Shown: positions 10,644-52,192 of the stretch, one piece after another
How positions within the stretch are numbered: the first letter of the stretch is position 1
Layout: each line of letters starts with the position of its first letter
Program-made: the position numbers and the translations under genes
Notes under the pieces: generated by a model
Told to the model about the DNA's origin: nothing
What the model saw: only the letters and a program-made list of their open reading frames with translations
Database searches by the model: none
Source: a virus
Reading direction: 5' to 3' (one strand)
Length of the DNA stretch: 64,000 bases
IMG/VR virus record: IMGVR_UViG_3300017971_000041
Span: 2,677 to 66,676 of that record

Positions 10644-12482
10644 ATGCCCGCGAAACAAAAACAAATATTGGTAACAGGATTCCCCAGATCTGGGTTTGGC
10701 AGCTTAGGTCGGATTCTAAAACTCAACAGCATTCATGTGGGCCATGAGACAATTGAAGAACATGGGACTGTCTCATGGTGCCACACTGGGTACGGGAAGC
10801 TGTCATGGCTTGATGAACCAGTTAAAGACGTGCGAGACAATTCTGATATTATTGTCCATCTTGTTCGATTTCCACTAAATGTTATAGCTTCAGCAGGGAC
10901 ATTGACCGTGGAAGTAATTAATTTTATGCGGCAAAATTTAGGGAAACCTGAATTGACCACGGTAACGTTGGCTGATGTAGTTGAATTGTATCTTGATTGG
11001 AATCAACGGATCGAAGACAGTGATCCACATTGTTGCATAAAAATTGAAGACTTGAATGATTCGGCAGCAGTTCGGGGACTGATTGATCGCTTACGGGCTC
11101 CCATGGCAGCGGCCTTTTATCAAGATAAGATCGAAAAGGACTTCAATGCTCGCTCACACCAACAGCTGAATTGGCGTATTTTACGAAACGAATTGCCGAC
11201 TGAATTGTTTGATCGGTTGGTTGCTAAAACGGAATCATATGGGTATCCGATTCCTGAACCAACCACCGTGGCTGTGTGTATCATGGGGAAAAATGAAAAG
11301 CATTACCTCGAATCGTTGGTTAAAAGTATTAAAGAAGTTAGCCAGCCGAAATCAAAATTTTATGACCGGGCTGTGTATCTCGATACCGGTAGCACTGACG
11401 GGTCAGTCGAGTTTATGGAAAAAGCAGGATTCGAGGTTCATCGAACTGAGTGGCAAGACAATTTCTCTCTGCATCGGAATGAGCTTATTGATATTGTCAA
11501 AACTGGATGGATCGTGATGGTTGATTGCGACGAACGATTAGTTGGTCATTTCGGGCTCCTGAAGGGTCTCCTCAGCGATGTTCCCTATGATGTCAATGCT
11601 CTACGAGTTCGTATGGAAGATTTTAAAAATGGCAAGGCCTCGATGGTGTGGAATGTTGAGAAAATATTCCGGGCTGATACGTGCCGCTATGAATCCCGCG
11701 TCCATAATCAATTGAAATTCGAAGGGACCGCGCCCCAATGGATGGATGGGAAAATTGAGCACCATGGCTATGATATTTCAAAAGAAGCTATGGATAAGAA
11801 AATGGCCCGGACCCAAAAATTGCTGGCAATGCGGTTAAACGAAAATCCAGACGACCATGATGTTTATTTTTACATGGCCCAGAACGAATCGTATTTTAAT
11901 AATTATGAGACGGCATTGGGATACGTTGAGAAATATATCGAGGCTTATGCAAATAATTCGAAAATCAATAAATCGATATATCTGATTTATTGCCAGCTTC
12001 TTTATAATCTCGACCGGTTCCAACAACTCGAGGGCGTATATGAATGGTTACTTGTGAATTCCACACATGACCTTGATGTTTATTATCACATGACGGTTTA
12101 TGGGATTTCAAAGCGAAAGAGTCGATGGATAAAGATCGGGACAGAAAATTATATTGAAACCAGTCTCCGTTTCCAGCAATCGCCGGAACTCATGAACTCG
12201 TTCTTTTTTCACTACCTCGGCGATGAGCATTCCATTTTCATTTTGTCGGCAAATACCACGGAATTGTTTCGGTTAGCTGTAGAACGCCATAAGTACTTGC
12301 ACAAACTTAAGTCAATCGTCCCAGAGGGCCATACTTTTGCAGCCAACGTTGACAAACAACTGAAACGATATGGAGTCACTATCGGCTCGAATGTCCAGAC
12401 CGCGAAGTTGAACAAATGGAAAGACAAACCCTACCGTGGTAAGAAAAAATCGAAAAGGGTCCGCCGCGCAAAAAGGCATTAA
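10644..12482 (+). CDS. Sulfotransferase-like domain fused to GT2 glycosyltransferase and TPR region
   Basis: N-terminal 'ILVTGFPRSG' (PAPS-loop-like) and 'HLVRFPL.VI.S'. GT-A motifs 'CIMGKNE', 'LDTGSTDGS', 'W.DNFS.HRN', 'VDCDE', 'VHNQL', 'HHGY'. Helical C-terminus. Confidence 0.8.
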   Translation: MPAKQKQILVTGFPRSGFGSLGRILKLNSIHVGHETIEEHGTVSWCHTGYGKLSWLDEPVKDVRDNSDIIVHLVRFPLNVIASAGTLTVEVINFMRQNLGKPELTTVTLADVVELYLDWNQRIEDSDPHCCIKIEDLNDSAAVRGLIDRLRAPMAAAFYQDKIEKDFNARSHQQLNWRILRNELPTELFDRLVAKTESYGYPIPEPTTVAVCIMGKNEKHYLESLVKSIKEVSQPKSKFYDRAVYLDTGSTDGSVEFMEKAGFEVHRTEWQDNFSLHRNELIDIVKTGWIVMVDCDERLVGHFGLLKGLLSDVPYDVNALRVRMEDFKNGKASMVWNVEKIFRADTCRYESRVHNQLKFEGTAPQWMDGKIEHHGYDISKEAMDKKMARTQKLLAMRLNENPDDHDVYFYMAQNESYFNNYETALGYVEKYIEAYANNSKINKSIYLIYCQLLYNLDRFQQLEGVYEWLLVNSTHDLDVYYHMTVYGISKRKSRWIKIGTENYIETSLRFQQSPELMNSFFFHYLGDEHSIFILSANTTELFRLAVERHKYLHKLKSIVPEGHTFAANVDKQLKRYGVTIGSNVQTAKLNKWKDKPYRGKKKSKRVRRAKRH

Positions 12483-15867: not shown

Positions 15868-16209
15868 ATGATTTGTATATCGAGTACCATTGGGAGTGGT
15901 CGTTCGGTACAATTCCAGGAAACAGGCGAGACGATATTATACAATTTAAAAGCCCGTTTGTCTCATTCTGAATTATTAGATGGGACTTCATTCGTCTTAC
16001 ATTCCGGAACGAATGTTGGGGACATGACACCTAACATTTCCGCGGATTATGAACCGACACTCTGGGCAACTTTAAAAGAGATTCATGAAAATGATTCGAC
16101 AGTTTTATTATCATGTAAGGAGGGGCTGTTTTTAGCTTACATCGATTTTCTGTCTTTAAAAGGGACCCAGATCCAAATAACTATGAGGATCCAACAAAGG
16201 GAGACATAA
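15868..16209 (+). CDS. Putative distal tail protein
   Basis: Directly after the tape measure; 'RLSHSELLDG' motif; 113 aa. Confidence 0.45.
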   Translation: MICISSTIGSGRSVQFQETGETILYNLKARLSHSELLDGTSFVLHSGTNVGDMTPNISADYEPTLWATLKEIHENDSTVLLSCKEGLFLAYIDFLSLKGTQIQITMRIQQRET

Positions 16210-17354
16210 TGATAGCCGCCGCGTTGATGTTACGCCCAGATGAGTCTGGGCTAGAAAAATGTTTAAATTCAATAGACCCAATAGCAGACGAAATTGTCGC
16301 TGTTATCACGGGGGAACCGAGCCAAAGAACCAAACAGCTATTGTCACGATTTAATGTACAGTTCAATACCACGGTTTGGCGTGAAGATTATTCATATCAC
16401 AGAAATCAATCTTTCGACATGGTAAGTCCGGAAGCTGATTGGATCTTGCGTATTGACAGCGACGAGGAATTGATTTTACTGGACAAGAACCAACTGATCA
16501 ATACACTCAAAACTGCACCAAAAGAAGTTGATTGTTGTAGATGCAAAATGAAGGACTACCGTGGTAATACCGTCGTGATGGAATTTCCGCAATTGCATTT
16601 CTTTCGCGCAGGAACTGTCCAGTGGCGATATCGAAAACATAATACTCCTATATTTGCTGGAGAAATTATGCATCTCGATTCGTGTGTAACACACCATTAT
16701 GGGTATGATCTTGAGCCGAAAGCCATGGAGGCAAAACGGCAAGAAGCAATTCGGTTGATCAAATTGACGATGCAGGACTATCCCGGTGAGTATCCCGGAG
16801 ATTTTTATCTTTCCCAGATTTATGCACAGGATAAACCCAATGAAGCGATTAAACATCTGGTAAAATACATTGCCGAGAATGAAGATTCACCAGGATTTTT
16901 GAAGGCTGCTTATTCGTCTCTGAATTCCTTGTATGAAAAACTGGGAGAGACTGATAAGGCAATGGAAATTTTAAAAAGAGGTCTGGAGAAATTACCTCTG
17001 GATCTCGATTTAAATTTTCTTTTATGCCATCAATCTGTTCGAGATAACGATTACCAGTCGATGGTTAAAGGTGCGGAGAGATACATTCAAGCATGGAATA
17101 TTTATAAAAAACATGTTGACTTTTATGATCATTTTTGTTATTTTCATACGGATGAACACATTAGATTCGTATTGCATAAACTGGCCATTGCTCGGCTGCA
17201 AGAAGGAATTAGTTACGTTAATCACTTTTTTGGATTTGCGGATACTGATAACATTAATGACATAATGGTAAAAGACTTATCAATCCTTGGCATTGATTGG
17301 GAATGGGACGTCAATTATCCCATCGATGCTCAAAATATCCTAAAAGGAGTTTAA
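16209..17354 (+). CDS. GT2 glycosyltransferase with TPR repeats
   Basis: 'LEKCLNSI..IADEIV.V.TG', 'W.EDYS.HRN.S', 'WILRIDSDE', 'KHN', 'HHYGY', TPR-like helices. Confidence 0.85.
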   Translation: MIAAALMLRPDESGLEKCLNSIDPIADEIVAVITGEPSQRTKQLLSRFNVQFNTTVWREDYSYHRNQSFDMVSPEADWILRIDSDEELILLDKNQLINTLKTAPKEVDCCRCKMKDYRGNTVVMEFPQLHFFRAGTVQWRYRKHNTPIFAGEIMHLDSCVTHHYGYDLEPKAMEAKRQEAIRLIKLTMQDYPGEYPGDFYLSQIYAQDKPNEAIKHLVKYIAENEDSPGFLKAAYSSLNSLYEKLGETDKAMEILKRGLEKLPLDLDLNFLLCHQSVRDNDYQSMVKGAERYIQAWNIYKKHVDFYDHFCYFHTDEHIRFVLHKLAIARLQEGISYVNHFFGFADTDNINDIMVKDLSILGIDWEWDVNYPIDAQNILKGV

Positions 17355-40998: not shown

Positions 40999-42987
40999 CT
41001 ATTTTTTATATCGTTTTGTTTCGAATCCAGCCGCCTTAAGTGGAAAACCAGTGTATACTTCGTCTCGATTACACATGATTTTATTGACTTCATCAATCGA
41101 GACCCCTCCATCAATCGGGGTTTCAATCACGACTTCGTCGTGGACAGTCAAGATTATTTTGTGTCCGAGTCTTTCGAGATCCAAGACAGCTTCCATCAAT
41201 ATCTCCCGACACATTGCTTGAGTTGCATTTTCAGCCAATCGACCAGGAGTCAATGACACCCGTCTCCAACTGTTTTTTGAAGTCATCCCCAGGTGTGTTA
41301 CAGATTGAGTCCAACCCCAAGGCGCCTTTACTTCCTCCACCCGTGGTTTATAATATGCTAGGGCTTTCCCGTTGGGGAGAATCAAAAAAAGAAATCCTTG
41401 ATGGCTCATAAATTGGATGTATCCAAATGAGGTCAAGGTACCTTGATTGATGATTGCGTCTTCAGCTGCGTCTTTGAGACCATACCAGAATTCTTTTACA
41501 TGATAATATTTTTCACGGAAAATATCGATTGTTCGTTTTGCTCCAGCCATGTCAAGATTGAAGCCTCTCATTAAACAATCCTCGAGGAATTTCTTGGCCC
41601 CCATCCCATATCCGCACCCGAGAATTGTAAGCTTCCCGTGTCGTCTCATTTCGGAATCCTTTGGGATTTGATCATAGGACAAGTCGTAAAGTGAAGTCGC
41701 CATATCTGTATACAAACACAATCCGTTTTCAATTTTCCGCAATGCATCTTCTTGTCCGGCTAACCAAAACAAACCACGGTTTTCGACTTGTGAGTAATCA
41801 GACACAACAAATTTATATCCAGGAGGAGCGGTGATAGAGGGGCGTATCAACGCGGAACATGCATATAAGAAGTCAGGAAAGACACCCATCAAATCGACCA
41901 ACGAATCATTTTTAAACATTTCAATGGCTTTCTCGATATCCATTGATTTGATTTCAGCTCGAGGCAAGTTTTGAGGCTGCAATAAACGGCCTCCCTCCCG
42001 CCCCGTGGTAGCTCGATGGTATTTAAGACAATCACGGATTCGCCCGTCGAAACACACAGCTTGCTGTAGTTTGGGGAATTTTTTAATCGAACTTTTCCCA
42101 GCTGTTTTTCGAATTTCAAGTAACGTTTTAACGCCCGGAAAATTATCAATCTCTGGATCTTCGAGACTTTTTGTAACAGTGTCAGCAGTCAAGTCTGGCA
42201 ATTCATATCCCTGCGATTCGCACCATTGGAGGATTTTTGCTCGTTGATTAATTGTTTGGACTTTATTGCCAGTTATGATTCCGACCATCGCCGTAACATC
42301 TTCGAGATATTCCTCGGTTCGATTAACCACGGCATCGATTAATTCGAGATCAATCGGAATTCCGCGTTCATTTTTTCGGACGGTATGGCGCCAAATTTCG
42401 AGTTCATTACCAACGTAGCCCCAGGGAAGTTTGGTGAGGATGGCACGTTCGGCTTCCACGTCCTGGATGCAGTAGTCGTACATTTCTTGATAAAGGTCCG
42501 GAAATAGTTCCTTTGTCCATCGAATGTACGGGTTTTTCTTTGATGGTTTTTGTGGTTTCGACAATTTCTGAATTAAATATGATCCCCGTTTGTCTTTTTG
42601 GATTGCCAATTTCAGGACCTCACCACATTTGTCAAGAGCCAACGGGAGAGCGAATGCCGAAGCAATTGCTTGTGTGTCACGGTATTGGTTGAAGGGAATT
42701 TTCGGCCAAGCGAATTTTCTCATGCAAACATAATTCCAAAGATATCGCTCGAAGGCAACATTCCAGCCATATACCAAGTATCCGGCCTCGATTCGCTCAA
42801 ACAAGTCAACCGGCGGTGGAAGGTCTGGGTGCCAGAGTCTGGGTTCTTCATCATTGAAAGCATATGCCAGACAGATGATGTCAGTTGAGGGATCCATTGC
42901 ATATCGACCCGACCCAACAACTTTAATGTCAGCTTTCGAATATGACTCAAAGTCCATGTTTATTCGGGGGCTTTTATCGTCTTCCAT
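40999..42987 (-). CDS. DNA polymerase family A with 3'-5' exonuclease domain
   Basis: 'DFESYS', 'NVAFER', 'YCIQDV', 'TGREGG..LQPQNLPR', motif A 'DYSQVENR', motif B 'R.HGK..ILG.GYGMG', motif C 'VHDE'. Confidence 0.96.
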   Translation of the reverse strand: MEDDKSPRINMDFESYSKADIKVVGSGRYAMDPSTDIICLAYAFNDEEPRLWHPDLPPPVDLFERIEAGYLVYGWNVAFERYLWNYVCMRKFAWPKIPFNQYRDTQAIASAFALPLALDKCGEVLKLAIQKDKRGSYLIQKLSKPQKPSKKNPYIRWTKELFPDLYQEMYDYCIQDVEAERAILTKLPWGYVGNELEIWRHTVRKNERGIPIDLELIDAVVNRTEEYLEDVTAMVGIITGNKVQTINQRAKILQWCESQGYELPDLTADTVTKSLEDPEIDNFPGVKTLLEIRKTAGKSSIKKFPKLQQAVCFDGRIRDCLKYHRATTGREGGRLLQPQNLPRAEIKSMDIEKAIEMFKNDSLVDLMGVFPDFLYACSALIRPSITAPPGYKFVVSDYSQVENRGLFWLAGQEDALRKIENGLCLYTDMATSLYDLSYDQIPKDSEMRRHGKLTILGCGYGMGAKKFLEDCLMRGFNLDMAGAKRTIDIFREKYYHVKEFWYGLKDAAEDAIINQGTLTSFGYIQFMSHQGFLFLILPNGKALAYYKPRVEEVKAPWGWTQSVTHLGMTSKNSWRRVSLTPGRLAENATQAMCREILMEAVLDLERLGHKIILTVHDEVVIETPIDGGVSIDEVNKIMCNRDEVYTGFPLKAAGFETKRYKK

Positions 42988-42989
42988 GT

Positions 42990-43751
42990 TTACTCCTTGT
43001 ATTGAGGAAGGTTTGATGGTAAAGTTTCGTGAATACCTTCGGTTATTTCATGGTTCTTATCGATTTTACCGATTGCCATTACTGAGATTGCTGCCATTTG
43101 CAACAGCCGCTTCTTTAGCTCAATTCGCCAGTGGGGATTTTGTAACGAGATTTGTGAAATCTTATCAAGACGTTTAGCAAATACTCGTCTCATTTCCTCC
43201 AAACCCATCCCGTGGTTCATGTCAGACCAAAGAAATTCTTGGACGGTCCTGGCGGCTTTAATCGTTTTAGCGATTGCTAATTCTTCGAGGTCAAGGGCAG
43301 CTTGTGTGTCTTGATATTGGATTTCCTTGATATTAGCTTCCCGGATAAGGGCATCGCGGCAATCGCTGGATAAATAGTGTTTGATATAGTAAATTCGTTT
43401 AATTTTTGTCGTTGATATCAGTTTAATACAATTAATACAAGGTCGTACTGTACAATATAACTCTGTGTTTGTCAACCCTTCTTTTCCACAGGATTTTAAT
43501 CCCTCGATTAAGACATTTACCTCAGCGTGTATTGCCGGACATTTATCAAGGTCTTTTCCTGAATTGTCGCCTTTAGGATTTCGTTTACAGGTTTCACAAT
43601 GGGGGTGACCAGATGGGGGCCCATTGTAACCGGTTGCAACAATTCGACTATCTCGGACCAACAATGCCCCAACCCGACGACTGAGGCACGTTGACCGAGC
43701 GGCAACCAATTTTGTGATTTCCATAAAATAATTTTGGCGGCCGAGTCGCAT
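42990..43751 (-). CDS. dCMP deaminase with a helical C-terminal extension
   Basis: 'RSTC..R.VGA', 'TGYNG', 'HAEVN', 'PCINC'. Confidence 0.9.
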   Translation of the reverse strand: MRLGRQNYFMEITKLVAARSTCLSRRVGALLVRDSRIVATGYNGPPSGHPHCETCKRNPKGDNSGKDLDKCPAIHAEVNVLIEGLKSCGKEGLTNTELYCTVRPCINCIKLISTTKIKRIYYIKHYLSSDCRDALIREANIKEIQYQDTQAALDLEELAIAKTIKAARTVQEFLWSDMNHGMGLEEMRRVFAKRLDKISQISLQNPHWRIELKKRLLQMAAISVMAIGKIDKNHEITEGIHETLPSNLPQYKE

Positions 43752-43754
43752 GAT

Positions 43755-44450
43755 TTAGAATTCTCCTTTGACATGGGCGTGGAAAGTATGTAACGATCCG
43801 ATGTTATGATAAAACCACCCGGGGGTAACGCCAACTTGGTCAGCGATATATTGCATCAATTTGATCGTGGTATATACATCCGATGCATAAAATAAAACAT
43901 AATCACACGATCTCTGGGAATAGATAACGTGTAATTTATTTCCACGGATGAAGAATTGATAAGTCAAAGAGCACGGGACTCGGTCGCGGCCTCCCCAGTT
44001 CATCATGTCTTTGTTCGATTCATACATGGAAATAATTGCCTGGCGAGTATTCGGACGTTCTTTCAATTCCTGAATAACGTACGGAATCTGGGCCTGCCAG
44101 CGTTCGGGATAGGCGTAAGAGAAACAGCCATTGCGGATATAGGGTTTCCAAAAATCCTGTCGAATTTTCCAAGCTTCGCCGGGATTTTTATTGACGATGG
44201 AAAAATCCAGTCGTTCGGCAATTTCTGCATGGACCCAATCAATATCCATGTTCATGTAAGCCAGCAATTCCTCGAGGTCGTTGTACTGTTGAATGCAGTA
44301 GGAATAGCTCATGAGTTCGAGAGTCCGGAAGTCCGGATCGTCGCCGACGTATTTGTCTTGTACGGTATCGGACTGGTATTCGATTCCCATTTCTTTCAAT
44401 TCCCGTGCTAACTCTTTAGCACACTCGATAGTCGATTGATAAACTCTCAT
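43755..44450 (-). CDS. Thymidylate synthase homologue with dCMP-type specificity residue (dCMP hydroxymethylase/methylase-like)
   Basis: 'TRQAI', catalytic 'VPC..TYQF.IR', 'QRSCD......SD' with Asp at the position of E. coli ThyA Asn177, 'IGSLH'. Confidence 0.8.
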   Translation of the reverse strand: MRVYQSTIECAKELARELKEMGIEYQSDTVQDKYVGDDPDFRTLELMSYSYCIQQYNDLEELLAYMNMDIDWVHAEIAERLDFSIVNKNPGEAWKIRQDFWKPYIRNGCFSYAYPERWQAQIPYVIQELKERPNTRQAIISMYESNKDMMNWGGRDRVPCSLTYQFFIRGNKLHVIYSQRSCDYVLFYASDVYTTIKLMQYIADQVGVTPGWFYHNIGSLHTFHAHVKGEF

Positions 44451-44575: not shown

Positions 44576-45721
44576 TTATCTGCCAAGGTGTCTCTGGACG
44601 ATTTTATTTTGTTTGGCTAGTCGAACACATGAAGGCCGGTATCTGGGTCTCTCGGTCAAAAATGCATGAAATTGATCGATTAAGAAGCCCGGGAATTCAC
44701 ACGGGATACATCTCCCGGTTTGACGAATTAGCGTCCCATTCATGTTGTGGCGCCAGGTGCCATCGTCTTCAAGTTTTTCGGAATAAAAAATAAAGTCATC
44801 GGGAAAGCCCATGATTCGAGCTCGTTCACGGATCGTTGTTGGTAAGTTCGTTACTGGGTGAATGATCGGGTTGGTACCAATCAGTGTCGGGGAAGGCCCA
44901 TCGTACTTCGGTTTTCGAAAACCGAAATGGAATTTCTGTTCACCACGGTCATTGATATAATGTAGGGGTTTGTTGTCCTTTTTATCCCTGAAGATCTTTT
45001 GTACTTCTCCCCAGTTCATGGGTCCATCACGAAAAACCCGATTCCCAGCACGGGCTGAACTGTGGATTGAATGGAGAATATGGTTCGGCAACCTCCCGTG
45101 GCAGTCCTCAAGGTCCCGGATAACTTCTTTCAATGATTTCCCAATGTTGCGTTCGCCCGGCATGAATTGGTAGCCTAGATCGTGCAAGGAGGCAATAATA
45201 AACAGACGGTTCCGGTTCTTTTGGGAATTACCGTAGTGATAATTCGATACATATTCCACGTCAATGTGGTAATCAGGCAACAGAGATTTGTACAGCTCTG
45301 GCGGATTTGCTTCAAGGGATTTGGGAAGGTTGTCAAAGAAAGCAAACTTCGGTTTAATGACATTAACTATTCGAATCCATTCAAGAAACTCATCGGAGGC
45401 TTTCGATGCATACTCTTTACGTTCTGCCCCTGTTTTGTTGACGAGATTCGAATAGCGTCCACATTTCGGGTGTCCCCCGATAACATCGACCTTTCCAACC
45501 AAATCCTTTTTGATAAAGTCTGGCAGTTCGCTGTCTGATTTGACGAGCCAGGCGCCGGGGAAATTTTCGAGGAAGGTATTTCTGCCGTTTTCATCGAAGT
45601 GATGGCAAAACCCCCGAGGTTCAATGTTCCCATATAATTTATGGCCAGCTCTATGGGCATAAACGAATGGTGACCCGATTCCCGCATATACACCCAACAT
45701 TTTCAAAGGTCTTTCAATCAT
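44576..45721 (-). CDS. Divergent C5-cytosine DNA methyltransferase-like protein
   Basis: Motif I 'YAGIG', IV 'GGHPKCG.YS', VI 'FDNLP', VIII 'Q..RNRLF', IX 'TIRE.ARIMGFPDDF', X 'QTGRCIP'. Confidence 0.75.
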   Translation of the reverse strand: MIERPLKMLGVYAGIGSPFVYAHRAGHKLYGNIEPRGFCHHFDENGRNTFLENFPGAWLVKSDSELPDFIKKDLVGKVDVIGGHPKCGRYSNLVNKTGAERKEYASKASDEFLEWIRIVNVIKPKFAFFDNLPKSLEANPPELYKSLLPDYHIDVEYVSNYHYGNSQKNRNRLFIIASLHDLGYQFMPGERNIGKSLKEVIRDLEDCHGRLPNHILHSIHSSARAGNRVFRDGPMNWGEVQKIFRDKKDNKPLHYINDRGEQKFHFGFRKPKYDGPSPTLIGTNPIIHPVTNLPTTIRERARIMGFPDDFIFYSEKLEDDGTWRHNMNGTLIRQTGRCIPCEFPGFLIDQFHAFLTERPRYRPSCVRLAKQNKIVQRHLGR

Positions 45722-45778
45722 TATATTTTCTCCAAGTAACAAGCATTTAATTCGTTATGGTTCATGGGGGCCTTTTAT

Positions 45779-46405
45779 TTAATAATTCGAATTTTGCCGG
45801 AAAACATTGACCAATGCTTTTTTATGATAAAAAACATACAAAGCTTCCATTGACCCGACATGGTGAAAAATCGTATTCAACAAAGAAACGTAGCCGAGGA
45901 CCATCGAACTCACGAATCGGTTCCAGTCAGTTAACACATGGGTGTTTTTCCACGGTTTGTTTTTAAGGAGATTGCAGGCTATTCCAATGTGATAGGTGGT
46001 ATTCAGCATTTGCAGTGGATCCTTTACCAAGTCAACCGTCGGGCGGGGGGTGTATTTCTCGAAATGGGTCGGTTGGATATCACACAGAATGAGCATTTCG
46101 GTATAGAAGTGCAAGGCGTCAATCAATTCTTCGACCAGATGTACCTTGCTGTGGTCCGCGGCTTCGATGGCTTCGGTAATTTCTTCTGTTACACGCCAGG
46201 CATAGTCTTTGATAATGTATTGCCAAACCGGGTCGTCAATCGAAAACGGCCGACCAACAACGAAACCCAAGCCCAGACCATTGCCTTCCTCAATGCCTTT
46301 ATATTTTTCGTGCAATTCCGCCTGTCTGGCGAAGATTCCTTTAATTTGTTCGAACGGTGTTTTTGGGATGACTAATCCTTTTACGTCTGCGTCGTTGACA
46401 TTCAT
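45779..46405 (-). CDS. All-alpha dimeric dUTPase/MazG-like NTP pyrophosphatase
   Basis: 'EEITEA', 'EELIDALHF', 'KPWK', 'Y..K..VN.FRQ..NY'. Confidence 0.82.
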   Translation of the reverse strand: MNVNDADVKGLVIPKTPFEQIKGIFARQAELHEKYKGIEEGNGLGLGFVVGRPFSIDDPVWQYIIKDYAWRVTEEITEAIEAADHSKVHLVEELIDALHFYTEMLILCDIQPTHFEKYTPRPTVDLVKDPLQMLNTTYHIGIACNLLKNKPWKNTHVLTDWNRFVSSMVLGYVSLLNTIFHHVGSMEALYVFYHKKALVNVFRQNSNY

Positions 46406-46463: not shown

Positions 46464-46976
46464 TTAGGTTTCGTAACCAGCCTCTCTGCATATTCTTTTT
46501 AATCGTATCATAGACAAATTTCGAAAGTCAACAGGAATCACTTTTAAATCAAGAATTGTCGAACAATGGACCATAATATTTTGGTATCGAGTATAAATAT
46601 CAAAGTACCGTTGTCGAACTTGCTCCACGTGTTCTTTGGATTTATGTTCTTTCTGGTTCAAGTAATGCAATTTTGATTCCAGATATTCCCATCCGGGGTT
46701 GCAATATATAATAAAAGGATTTAATTTTTGTAGTGCGTTCCACAGTATTTCGGGTTTGACAAGGATTTTACCACGGAGGGTGCAATATACTTGTTCGGAA
46801 ATACACGGGTGGCGGTCCAAAAGCATGTCCTTCGGAGTATTTTCAATTCGGGCCATAATTTCTTCAGGTGACTTCGGAGGCGCACCGAAATGGTGAATTT
46901 TCAAACCAGTGAATTCCGAAAGATGCCTCCCAACCGTGGTTTTCCCAGACAAATCGGGTCCTTCTAATAATATCAT
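46464..46976 (-). CDS. dNMP kinase (thymidylate-kinase-like)
   Basis: 'ILLEGPDLSGKTT', 'DR...SE.VY...RG'. Confidence 0.85.
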   Translation of the reverse strand: MILLEGPDLSGKTTVGRHLSEFTGLKIHHFGAPPKSPEEIMARIENTPKDMLLDRHPCISEQVYCTLRGKILVKPEILWNALQKLNPFIIYCNPGWEYLESKLHYLNQKEHKSKEHVEQVRQRYFDIYTRYQNIMVHCSTILDLKVIPVDFRNLSMIRLKRICREAGYET

Positions 46977-50442: not shown

Positions 50443-51213
50443 TTATTTTCTCACAGCAATTTCATTATTGGTAACGGCTTCCGACAATTCGAAAGTATAA
50501 TCATACAGATGCAGGCCCTTCGAGGTTGCAATGATTTGTCCGTTGTCGACTCCGATTTCCGAGGCACAAATTTGCTTTAACATTTCGATTATGGCCAAGT
50601 TTGCTGGAAACCCAGACCATAAATCCCAGGACCGGAAATAAGGAAAGAAATGCAATGCTCCATCCTGAATCCGAGTATCGATATGGCGTAAGCATGGCGG
50701 ATCGACCAAGCTCATGTCCGAAGGTTTGGCAATTTGTAGGACCATTTGGTTGTTTCGAGGCCCAAACGCCTTATACGTCCGAATCATGTAATCGACTTGA
50801 TTTAACAAAACACATGGATTTGATCGTAAAGAGGTGAAAATACCACGGAGGAGGTCGATGTTAGTTTCTCGAACTTCCGTGGTGATATCTTGTGCATATA
50901 AACGGTTTCCATAAGTATATGCTTCGTTGTCATCTATGTCAGGAGTCAAAAGGTATTGGGAATATCCCTCGACATAGCCTTCTTGAACGGGGTCCGGCAG
51001 TCCCAAAACGGGGTTCAGTTGAGGCAACATGGGATTGTCCCACGGACGTCGGATGTGGATAGTTACGAAATCCAGCTCGAGTCGTTTGCTTAAAGCAAAG
51101 GATCCTTTATCAATGTTAAATGTTCGGCCTTCGGTAACAGCAGCATATACTGCTTGGAACCAAGCATCGGAGATTGTTACTGCATCAATTGAAATAGGCT
51201 TAAGTACGTCCAT
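50443..51213 (-). CDS. Thymidylate synthase (dUMP-type)
   Basis: 'YTYG.R', 'DPPCLR', 'FRSWDLWSGFPAN' with Asn at the specificity position, 'LHLY'. Confidence 0.88.
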   Translation of the reverse strand: MDVLKPISIDAVTISDAWFQAVYAAVTEGRTFNIDKGSFALSKRLELDFVTIHIRRPWDNPMLPQLNPVLGLPDPVQEGYVEGYSQYLLTPDIDDNEAYTYGNRLYAQDITTEVRETNIDLLRGIFTSLRSNPCVLLNQVDYMIRTYKAFGPRNNQMVLQIAKPSDMSLVDPPCLRHIDTRIQDGALHFFPYFRSWDLWSGFPANLAIIEMLKQICASEIGVDNGQIIATSKGLHLYDYTFELSEAVTNNEIAVRK

Positions 51214-51656
51214 TATCTTCCTTTCTGGGGCTTGTCAATTGGTCCCTTTTTGCCTTCTGAAATCGGACCATTGTTAAAATCGGGGGCGGCAATTCGGGGG
51301 ACATCCTCAATTTCGATCACCCGGGAAATATCCATCCAGGCCGAGTCAATGAGCTTTCCTTCCCTTGCTTGGGGGGTTACAAGGGCCTGGATACATCCCG
51401 ATAAATCAAATGAGATCGAGGTAACGATTCCCCTAAAACCAGTTACTTTATCTCGTACGGGCTTACCCAACATGGATATATGAGTCATGGTGTTCTCCTT
51501 TCGTATGGTAAATTGATTTTCGTTCAGCCAACTATGGAATTCTTTAGCTGTGTAATAACATTTGTCTGGGTCTCGAATGCACAGATGTCCTTCATCGTAC
51601 TCGATCAGGGCCTGGCATTTGACGTCTTTACAAAATTCGTATTTTTGATATCTCAT
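51213..51656 (-). CDS. Hypothetical protein; may be two genes (internal RBS and ATG at 51488)
   Basis: Cys-rich N-half; C-half 'LG..VRD.VTGF.G.V......GC' common in phage proteins. Confidence 0.6.
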   Translation of the reverse strand: MRYQKYEFCKDVKCQALIEYDEGHLCIRDPDKCYYTAKEFHSWLNENQFTIRKENTMTHISMLGKPVRDKVTGFRGIVTSISFDLSGCIQALVTPQAREGKLIDSAWMDISRVIEIEDVPRIAAPDFNNGPISEGKKGPIDKPQKGR

Positions 51657-51664
51657 GTCAACCT

Positions 51665-52192
51665 CTAAAATATTATTTGTTTCATGAACGAAACGGTTCC
51701 TTGGCGTAGATTTCCACGTTCGGGGCGATTCGTGAAAATATAGTCATAATCGAATTCCATTGACAGAATGTCAGCCGTGCAGTCTGGTACCGGTTTATTC
51801 GGATCCCGGACGAGTACGGTTATAAAATCGACTGGACACTTTTGTCGAAGTTTATTGATTTCCTTCGGCTCCCGGACATGTACAAATAAAACGAATGGTT
51901 GTCCGAGGTTCCTGCAAGCCCGGATTTGTTGAAGAGTCTCCTTCAACGGGAAATCACAGTAGTCGATGGAAAGCCACTTCAATGTTTGCCAATGGTTCCT
52001 CAATTCGTCCGTCTTGCCTTCGTCGCCTTCTTTGATTCCGACCATTGCACAAGCTTTTTTAATTGTATCAATGGTCGAATAATTAAAAGACCAAACCCCG
52101 TGGCGGTCCAATAGCTTGCGCAGTTCCTCAACAAAGGTGTCCTTTCCGTGGCCACCTGGGCCATTTACAACAATAACTTTTTGGATTTCCAT
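51665..52192 (-). CDS. P-loop dNMP-kinase-like protein
   Basis: 'VNGPGGHGKDTF', 'FVHVREP.EI', 'YDYIF.N'. Confidence 0.75.
   Translation of the reverse strand: MEIQKVIVVNGPGGHGKDTFVEELRKLLDRHGVWSFNYSTIDTIKKACAMVGIKEGDEGKTDELRNHWQTLKWLSIDYCDFPLKETLQQIRACRNLGQPFVLFVHVREPKEINKLRQKCPVDFITVLVRDPNKPVPDCTADILSMEFDYDYIFTNRPERGNLRQGTVSFMKQIIF

Follow-up and report, generated by a model that had tools for sequence, protein, structure and literature searches.

Judged by analogy, the nearest functional precedent for the gene described here is CmoX of Synechococcus phage S-B43 (PDB 8YF3), which modifies C5 of cytosine with the carboxymethyl group of carboxy-S-adenosylmethionine (carboxy-SAM; Yang et al. 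2025, PMC12783734). According to that paper, Arg350 of CmoX replaces Asn304 of M.HhaI and contacts the cofactor carboxyl, the R350N variant is inactive, and the wild type takes only carboxy-SAM. The paper also reports that host CmoA is sufficient when CmoX is expressed in E. coli, and counts 4257 CmoA genes for 5615 CmoX contigs. The gene that we analysed, hereafter the MTase-like gene, is predicted to encode a protein with the cytosine-C5 methyltransferase (C5-MTase) fold. It is found in a 64,000-nucleotide (nt) stretch of viral DNA, the window, at positions 2,677 to 66,676 of IMG/VR record IMGVR_UViG_3300017971_000041.

Space-opening changes at Gln82 and Asn304 of M.HhaI are the classic route to the acceptance of bulky S-adenosylmethionine (SAM) analogues by C5-MTases. 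A cationic side chain at the motif X site best supported the use of carboxy-SAM in M.MpeI (N374K), and the Y205K/R variants of M.CviPI gained carboxy-SAM activity (PMC13288465). These are laboratory variants of otherwise canonical enzymes, which keep their SAM activity and act on unmodified cytosine. At the equivalent place in the structure, the family described below carries Lys or Arg, most commonly Lys.

T4-type systems hypermodify cytosine in two steps. They share with our locus a thymidylate synthase (TS) homologue with Asp at position 177 (E. coli ThyA numbering), a nucleoside triphosphate (NTP) pyrophosphatase, a kinase, a deoxycytidine monophosphate (dCMP) deaminase and, optionally, an enzyme acting on DNA that depends on these. 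The enzymes of the second, DNA-level step include a 5-hydroxymethylcytosine (5hmC) carbamoyltransferase (PMC8670742) and arabinosyltransferases (PMC13326640), besides glucosyltransferases. The same sources treat Asp177 as the accepted mark of dCMP use (PMC13326640, PMC8670742), link a hydrophobic residue at position 143 to methyl products and an acidic one to hydroxymethyl products, and link Asn169 to 5-hydroxy-dCMP synthase (PMC13326640). TS, PRA-PH and dCMP-deaminase domains also co-occur on contigs experimentally enriched for modified cytosine (PMC8670742). At our locus, the predicted DNA-level enzyme has a C5-MTase fold instead of being a glycosyl- or carbamoyltransferase.

From its sequence and its structural model, we predict that the product of the MTase-like gene is an intact enzyme that acts on DNA and belongs to a branch of the C5-MTase fold found only in viruses. 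The protein scores 54.9 bits against the Pfam DNA_methylase model (cut-off 22) but only 36.5 bits against the NCBIfam model dcm (TIGR00675), below its cut-off of 100.65. An AlphaFold2 model computed from 28 relatives has a mean predicted local distance difference test score (pLDDT) of 91.8 and a predicted template modelling score (pTM) of 0.90. The top Foldseek matches are all C5-MTases: M.HaeIII (E 2.9e-18), plant MET1, an E. coli prophage methylase and M.HhaI. CmoX (8YF3) follows at rank 7 and is also among the best sequence matches. The protein has the two lobes of the fold, a target-recognition lobe and a Rossmann-type catalytic domain.

M.HaeIII and M.HhaI (PF00145) are the best sequence and fold matches, with an identity of only 15-20%. 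They share with the window protein the two-lobed fold, the order of motifs I to X, the catalytic Cys, the two Arg of motif VIII and the RE..FPD of motif IX. The window protein differs from them as follows: it has no Pro before the catalytic Cys, Gly for Gln after it, Asp-Asn-Leu for Glu-Asn-Val in motif VI, Arg for Asn in motif X and Ser for the last Gly of motif I. In the alignment to M.HaeIII, GHPKCG falls on GGPPCQ, DNL on ENV, and G-R (G-K in most relatives) on the G-N of GNAVP. The change from Glu to Asp in motif VI is conservative and retains the acid.

The CmoX-type protein of Synechococcus phage RN05-S (372 amino acids, aa) carries GSPPCSAFS and VGRMVPP and adjoins an open reading frame (ORF) that matches CmoA (E 4.1e-33). 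Its motif X Arg shares a column with the window Arg, the family Lys and the canonical Asn, and its Ser after the Cys shares one with the family Gly and the canonical Gln. CmoX and the window protein thus have in common a phage C5-MTase fold, an Arg in motif X and a small residue after the catalytic Cys. They differ in that CmoX has SPPC where the window protein has GHPKC, and an ENV-type motif; the RN05-S homologue reaches 154.9 bits on the dcm model compared to 36.5 for the window protein. The census in PMC12783734 required SPPC and R350, and the MTase-like family therefore falls outside it.

The initial annotation of this gene had pointed to the motifs YAGIGS, HPKCG, DNL and GRCIP on a C5-MTase fold and had placed the changes at the cofactor and base pocket. 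All four motifs are present in normal order, the structure prediction and Foldseek matches agree with the fold, and the alignments to canonical enzymes fit the placement in the pocket. The rewiring is thus located at the site of the transferred group, where one natural enzyme and several engineered ones offer precedents for a different cofactor. A cationic motif X residue, taken alone, is compatible with plain methylation too.

These deviations are a property of the whole family. A word-index search returned 71 relatives (nearest 63% identical), and an exhaustive search returned 642 proteins at E <= 0.001, with 81 representative clusters at E <= 1e-30. For column counts, 157 family candidates (P0001-P0158 minus P0071) were placed on the profile of alignment A1; both motif columns are filled in 143 rows, to which the following counts refer unless stated otherwise. 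The catalytic Cys is found in 143/143 rows and is followed by Gly in 141. The preceding residue is variable (Glu 68, Lys 32, Ser 12, Asn 12, Asp 11, Ala 5, Pro 1, Tyr 1, Thr 1). Motif VI starts with Asp in 136 rows and Glu in 7, and the two Arg of motif VIII are retained in 141-143. In motif X, Lys (105) and Arg (29) together account for 134 rows, followed by Asn (5), Gln (2) and Ala (2). Motif I retains Gly-x-Gly-Ser, with Gly-x-Gly in 125-126 of 126 filled rows and a variable first position (T 66, Y 31), and the residue of motif II is acidic in all 133 filled rows (E 121, D 12). Beyond the family boundary, weaker matches carry the canonical GPPCQ, ENV and GN. Because the pocket changes recur in 134-141 of the 143 rows, from proteins that are 27-63% identical, we consider that they are not due to chance and are under selection.

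The family is essentially viral. In the ESM Atlas it matches only clusters named 'viral DNA cytosine methyltransferase', which are 97-100% from viruses. A scan of one genome per species in 185,579 prokaryote species gave 7 matches, all weak or on contigs of metagenome-assembled genomes, so that a reliable host was not obtained. Among cultured phages, nothing closer than 26% identity was found in 42 records. The family is large, virus-only and uncharacterised: full-text literature searches, whose coverage leaves out most subscription journals, returned no description of it or of its pairing with the TS homologue.

Several relatives are interrupted by inteins. Hint/intein domains together with a DUF559/MTES_1575 endonuclease are found in P0075, P0085, P0098, P0104 and P0128, and also in P0086, P0094 and P0115. 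In 5 of the 6 sequences inspected, the intein is inserted between GHPE and CG, which corresponds to about nt 45461-45466 of the window; its last two residues are His-Asn, and position +1 of the C-extein is taken by the catalytic Cys. The rows with Asn before the Cys appear to be such intein ends, as they match the 'HN|CG' junctions.

Other relatives are fused to a second methylase. An N6/N4 DNA methylase domain was found in all 8 long relatives examined. This divergent N6_N4 methylase domain is often either fused to the MTase-like protein or encoded after it, for example in relatives P0076, P0077, P0081, P0091, P0101, P0105, P0109 and P0123 and at loci such as L026:9401-10306.

The MTase-like gene is also strongly linked to the TS homologue. 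The two genes lie at most 8 kb apart in 48 of 52 viral loci; the other four are in records that are 6-48% complete, with no PF00303 match anywhere in them. As a control we used loci of canonical viral C5-MTases (40 records searched, from the first 50 of 80 loci) and found any TS (PF00303) in only 3 of the 40. Depending on the locus, the TS gene is directly upstream, directly downstream or 4-5 kb off, and the linkage has thus survived rearrangement.

The linkage has a direction. When 80 viral loci were sampled by the TS homologue, the MTase-like gene was present in 19 and missing from 61, while the same loci contained the NTP pyrophosphatase (70), the family A polymerase (56) and the dCMP deaminase (30). 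The kinase-like gene cluster was found in 10 of the 19 loci with the MTase-like gene compared to 1 of the 61 without. The MTase-like gene is nearly always found with TS, and TS is mostly found without the MTase-like gene; this one-way dependence is the pattern expected of a downstream decorating enzyme. By analogy, TS and the pyrophosphatase look like a self-sufficient core comparable to T4 gp42 and gp56, on which the MTase-like gene, apparently an optional accessory, would depend.

The TS homologue of the window carries R143, C146, S147, D169 and D177, the last in place of Asn177. This signature (with Ser or Thr at 147) is found in all 43 clustered TS homologues (42 loci and the window), Asp177 being present in every one, and in all 76 and all 64 TS matches of two further samples, whether or not the MTase-like gene is present. 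Among solved structures, the best matches (9iqu and 9iqc) have Asn169 in the alignment; we therefore considered 5-hydroxy-dCMP synthase activity for the window protein and rejected it, as D169 is kept. Position 143 is Arg and not the acidic residue of the hydroxymethylase type. Compared to the described dCMP-modifying TS enzymes, the combination of R143 and D169 fits neither signature. The earlier premise that genomic C5 may already be substituted fits the gene content, namely the Asp177 TS, the pyrophosphatase, the deoxynucleoside monophosphate (dNMP) kinase and the dCMP deaminase, together with the family-wide TS linkage.

Our tentative preference is that the MTase-like enzyme performs the DNA-level second step of cytosine hypermodification, extending the C5 side chain of a pre-substituted cytosine with a SAM-type cofactor; we regard this as plausible, if still short of probable. 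The TS homologue would make a C5-substituted dCMP, probably the hydroxymethyl form, which the kinase and host enzymes would raise to the triphosphate. The pyrophosphatase would remove the competing deoxynucleoside triphosphate, and the phage polymerase would incorporate the substituted nucleotide into DNA. As the module would replace cytosine with a C5-substituted form, the MTase-like enzyme would meet substituted cytosines. After replication it would flip these out and extend or alter the C5 side chain by alkyl transfer, with SAM as the source of a methyl group or carboxy-SAM, bound through the cationic residue, as the source of a carboxymethyl group. The resulting base would consequently differ from plain 5-methylcytosine (5mC). 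The protein retains the residues of covalent catalysis (the Cys, Asp for Glu, the two motif VIII Arg) and the nucleotide-binding motifs I and II; its rebuilt part is the pocket that surrounds C5 and the transferred group (Gly for Gln, Arg or Lys for Asn, no Pro).

In its most specific form, this explanation would make the protein the first natural enzyme of the C5-MTase fold to act on C5-substituted cytosine, flipping out the TS-derived base (probably 5hmC) and building on its side chain, which is possible but doubtful. On one possible route, O-alkylation would yield 5-methoxymethyl-cytosine with SAM or 5-(carboxymethoxy)methyl-cytosine with carboxy-SAM; the other is a Cys-driven exchange of the hydroxyl. 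A further, hypothetical variant would be aminocarboxypropyl transfer from SAM, steered by the cationic residue.

A number of points weigh against this explanation. We know of no natural enzyme of the C5-MTase fold that acts on an already C5-substituted cytosine. All residues for ordinary C5 carbanion chemistry are kept, which side-chain O-alkylation does not require. We infer the TS product, the full replacement of cytosine, the substrate of the enzyme and the transferred group. Counted over the whole window on both strands against a maximal-order Markov expectation, GGCC is depleted (266 vs 351 expected), which is unexpected if every cytosine is protected; CGATCG is depleted as well (10 vs 38 expected). 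Shared ancestry surely contributes to the TS linkage and could, within one phage lineage, explain part of it. Finally, Arg143 of the TS homologue matches neither of the residue types linked to methyl and hydroxymethyl products (PMC13326640), and the engineered Lys/Arg variants still methylate with SAM (PMC13288465).

The initial annotation had proposed an altered chemistry, in the form of action on 5hmC, on free nucleotide or with another cofactor. The idea of another cofactor has precedent at motif X, in CmoX R350 (PMC12783734) and M.MpeI N374K (PMC13288465). Nothing points to action on a free nucleotide; the protein has a target-recognition lobe and relatives fused to N6/N4 DNA methylases. 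Site-specific marking of CCACGG/CCCAGA had been suggested as well, and we found no link to the enzyme; the two hexamers are only mildly over-represented in the window (101 vs 66.7 and 85 vs 65.6 expected, respectively).

The alternative that survives best is an ordinary SAM-dependent 5mC methyltransferase of a divergent viral lineage, which would act on unmodified cytosines in anti-restriction and whose motifs would be tolerated drift. We hold this to be rather unlikely. The catalytic Cys, the motif VI acid, the two motif VIII Arg and motifs I and II are all kept as it would require, and 5/143 relatives have the canonical Asn in motif X. The engineered variants with Lys or Arg still work with SAM, and E. 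coli is said to contain 400-fold more SAM than carboxy-SAM (PMC13288465). The fusion to an N6/N4 methylase in 8/8 long relatives resembles multi-methylase anti-restriction proteins, the avoidance of GGCC suggests incomplete protection, and CmoA was not found in any of the 43 records described below. However, drift leaves unexplained why Gly is kept in 141/143 rows and Lys or Arg in 134/143 at 27-63% identity. An anti-restriction enzyme should also reach phages without an Asp177 TS, yet 48/52 loci have TS compared to 3/40 in the control, and such an enzyme would find little substrate if cytosine is replaced from the nucleotide pool. If this alternative is true, enzymes with a cationic pocket can be plain methylases in nature.

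We consider it unlikely that the enzyme is a CmoX-like C5-carboxymethyltransferase which acts on unmodified cytosine and uses carboxy-SAM from host CmoA to make 5-carboxymethylcytosine. Several similarities speak for it: the window motif X Arg aligns with the Arg of the RN05-S protein, which is encoded beside a CmoA homologue, the residue after the Cys is small in both (Ser in the CmoX type, Gly here, Gln in canonical enzymes), and 8YF3 is among the best sequence and fold matches. The literature adds that R350 binds the cofactor carboxyl and R350N is dead, that host CmoA is enough for CmoX in E. coli (PMC12783734), and that a cationic residue is best for carboxy-SAM in M.MpeI and M.CviPI (PMC13288465).

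The genetic context argues against it. No match to CmoA (TIGR00740) was found in the window's own complete record or in 42 related viral records (14 at least 90% complete), that is in 0/43 records of which 15 are at least 90% complete, compared to the 4257 CmoA genes for 5615 CmoX contigs in PMC12783734; the CmoA of RN05-S (E 4.1e-33) served as positive control for the model. Of the control genomes, E. coli alone reached the CmoA cut-off, and carboxy-SAM may therefore be lacking in many hosts. While CmoA and often a ligase accompany CmoX, the MTase-like family lacks CmoA and is tied to the Asp177 TS homologue. SPPC is absent, no amide ligase was found in the window or in the loci of its GHPKCG clade, and C5 is probably already occupied. 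If the CmoX-like alternative is nevertheless true, it widens the known range of natural carboxymethyltransferases.

A glutamine-dependent asparagine-synthetase homologue adjoins the MTase-like gene in 33/52 loci and is absent from every locus of the GHPKCG clade. We considered this gene as a CmoY-like ligase acting on the product of the MTase-like enzyme and dropped the idea, since it tracks the TS homologue instead. In 80 viral loci sampled by the asparagine-synthetase-like gene, a TS homologue was found in 64, the MTase-like gene in 21, and neither CmoA nor a canonical C5-MTase in any. Conversely, 5 loci of the TS sample have the asparagine-synthetase-like gene without the MTase-like gene, 4 of them carrying only an N6/N4-methylase-like ORF. 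The gene is thus a second, independent accessory of the TS core, and it cannot be taken as a sign that the MTase-like enzyme makes a carboxyl group. No cultured-phage match to the asparagine-synthetase-like protein was found at E 1e-5.

A third alternative is a cofactor-independent covalent chemistry on 5hmC, in which C6 is attacked by the Cys and the hydroxyl is lost, after which the exocyclic methylene takes up a nucleophile from the former cofactor pocket, such as an amino acid bound by Arg or Lys. Bacterial C5-MTases reportedly couple thiols to 5hmC and remove formaldehyde from 5hmC without SAM, in work by Liutkeviciute, Klimasauskas and colleagues. The strict one-way dependence on the TS homologue, the invariant Cys with inteins of relatives inserted exactly before it, and the cationic character of the rebuilt pocket are compatible with this chemistry. 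The strong conservation of motifs I and II, the binding site of the SAM adenosine, argues instead for a nucleotide cofactor, and there is neither a natural precedent nor a candidate nucleophile, which makes it very unlikely in our view. Equally improbable is an inactive or purely DNA-binding relic, or an enzyme that acts on something else than cytosine in phage DNA, such as host DNA or RNA: the Pro-Cys, ENV and GN signatures are all altered and the dcm score is below its cut-off, but the active-site residues are strongly conserved over 81 representatives at E <= 1e-30, inteins are inserted next to the catalytic Cys, the kind of essential site that they usually occupy, and the predicted model is confident and complete.

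Should a C5-MTase fold indeed decorate an already modified cytosine by one of the two routes above, the product would belong to a new class of hypermodified cytosines and the reaction would be of a type new to the fold. Which restriction and CRISPR defences a phage can evade depends on the hypermodification of its DNA, and phage DNA modification enzymes such as glucosyltransferases and carboxymethyltransferases gave tools for epigenome sequencing. The family described here naturally carries both pocket changes that engineers make to switch the cofactor of C5-MTases.

The record to which the window belongs is 66.7 kb long, has direct terminal repeats and is rated 100% complete; the virus is a tailed phage. 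On the plus strand, genes for terminase, portal, capsid and tail extend to about 26 kb, followed by a long minus-strand block of replication and nucleotide-metabolism genes. The MTase-like gene sits in this block in a single string of kinase, pyrophosphatase, MTase-like, TS, deaminase and polymerase genes (Table 1). Its longest frame (44576-45742, minus strand, 388 aa) starts with TTG at 45742. A GGAG is found 8 nt upstream of the ATG at 45721, which is the upper limit given in the initial annotation and the start of the protein predicted by gene callers (P0001).

Table 1. Positions in the window of the MTase-like gene, its motifs and the neighbouring genes; residue numbers of motifs refer to the 388-aa frame.
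Feature	Position (nt)	Strand	Remarks
C5-methyltransferase-fold gene	44576..45721	(-)	381 aa from ATG at 45721; Pfam PF00145
Motif I, YAGIGS	45671..45688	(-)	aa 19-24; canonical FxGxGG
Motif II-like, GNIEPR	45614..45631	(-)	acidic residue binds cofactor ribose in canonical enzymes
Motif IV, GHPKCGRYS	45449..45475	(-)	aa 90-98; Lys (not Pro) before the catalytic Cys, Gly (not Gln) after
Motif VI, FFDNLPKS	45317..45340	(-)	aa 135-142; Asp for the Glu of ENV
Motif VIII, SQKNRNR	45206..45226	(-)	QxRxR with one extra residue
Motif IX, TIRERARIMGFPDDF	44792..44836	(-)	carries the motif IX Arg-Glu
Motif X, QTGRCIP	44702..44722	(-)	aa 341-347; Arg at the canonical Asn position (HhaI N304, CmoX R350)
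P-loop dNMP-kinase-like gene	46464..46976	(-)	PHROG 761, E 4.5e-10
All-alpha NTP pyrophosphatase (dUTPase_2 / MazG-like)	45779..46405	(-)	
Thymidylate-synthase homologue, probably dCMP-specific	43755..44450	(-)	Pfam and PHROG matches; alignment to solved TS structures
dCMP deaminase	42990..43751	(-)	
Family A DNA polymerase	40999..42987	(-)	end of gene string

The dCMP deaminase is unusually built. It has 253 aa, the deaminase domain ends near residue 146, and the C-terminal part of about 100 aa is without a family match; relatives elsewhere have about 135-160 aa.

The window contains a second TS homologue, which keeps Asn177 (dUMP type, for deoxyuridine monophosphate) and whose best NCBIfam match is an archaeal-type TS model, below the cut-off. 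It belongs to a block of three minus-strand ORFs (50443-51213, 51213-51656 and 51665-52192) that includes an ORF of PHROG 37639 and a second kinase-like ORF. This homologue may be a true thymidylate synthase or part of a second pyrimidine-modifying pair.

Elsewhere, the asparagine-synthetase homologue is paired with an Asp177/Arg143 TS mostly without any methyltransferase (loci L221-L298 and L144-L220, for example L203:8001-10048). The pair looks like a widespread two-enzyme cytosine pathway.

A TS homologue with Arg143 and Asp177, 38% identical to that of the window, is found in Clostridium phage CPD4 (MK017819.1, 48884-49645) with no MTase-like gene nearby. Such TS homologues in cultured Clostridium perfringens phages could serve to find the TS product.

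Finally, two ORFs resembling glycosyltransferase family 2, at 10644-12482 and 16209-17354 on the plus strand, flank the tape-measure gene inside the tail block and could be involved in the glycosylation of virion proteins or DNA.

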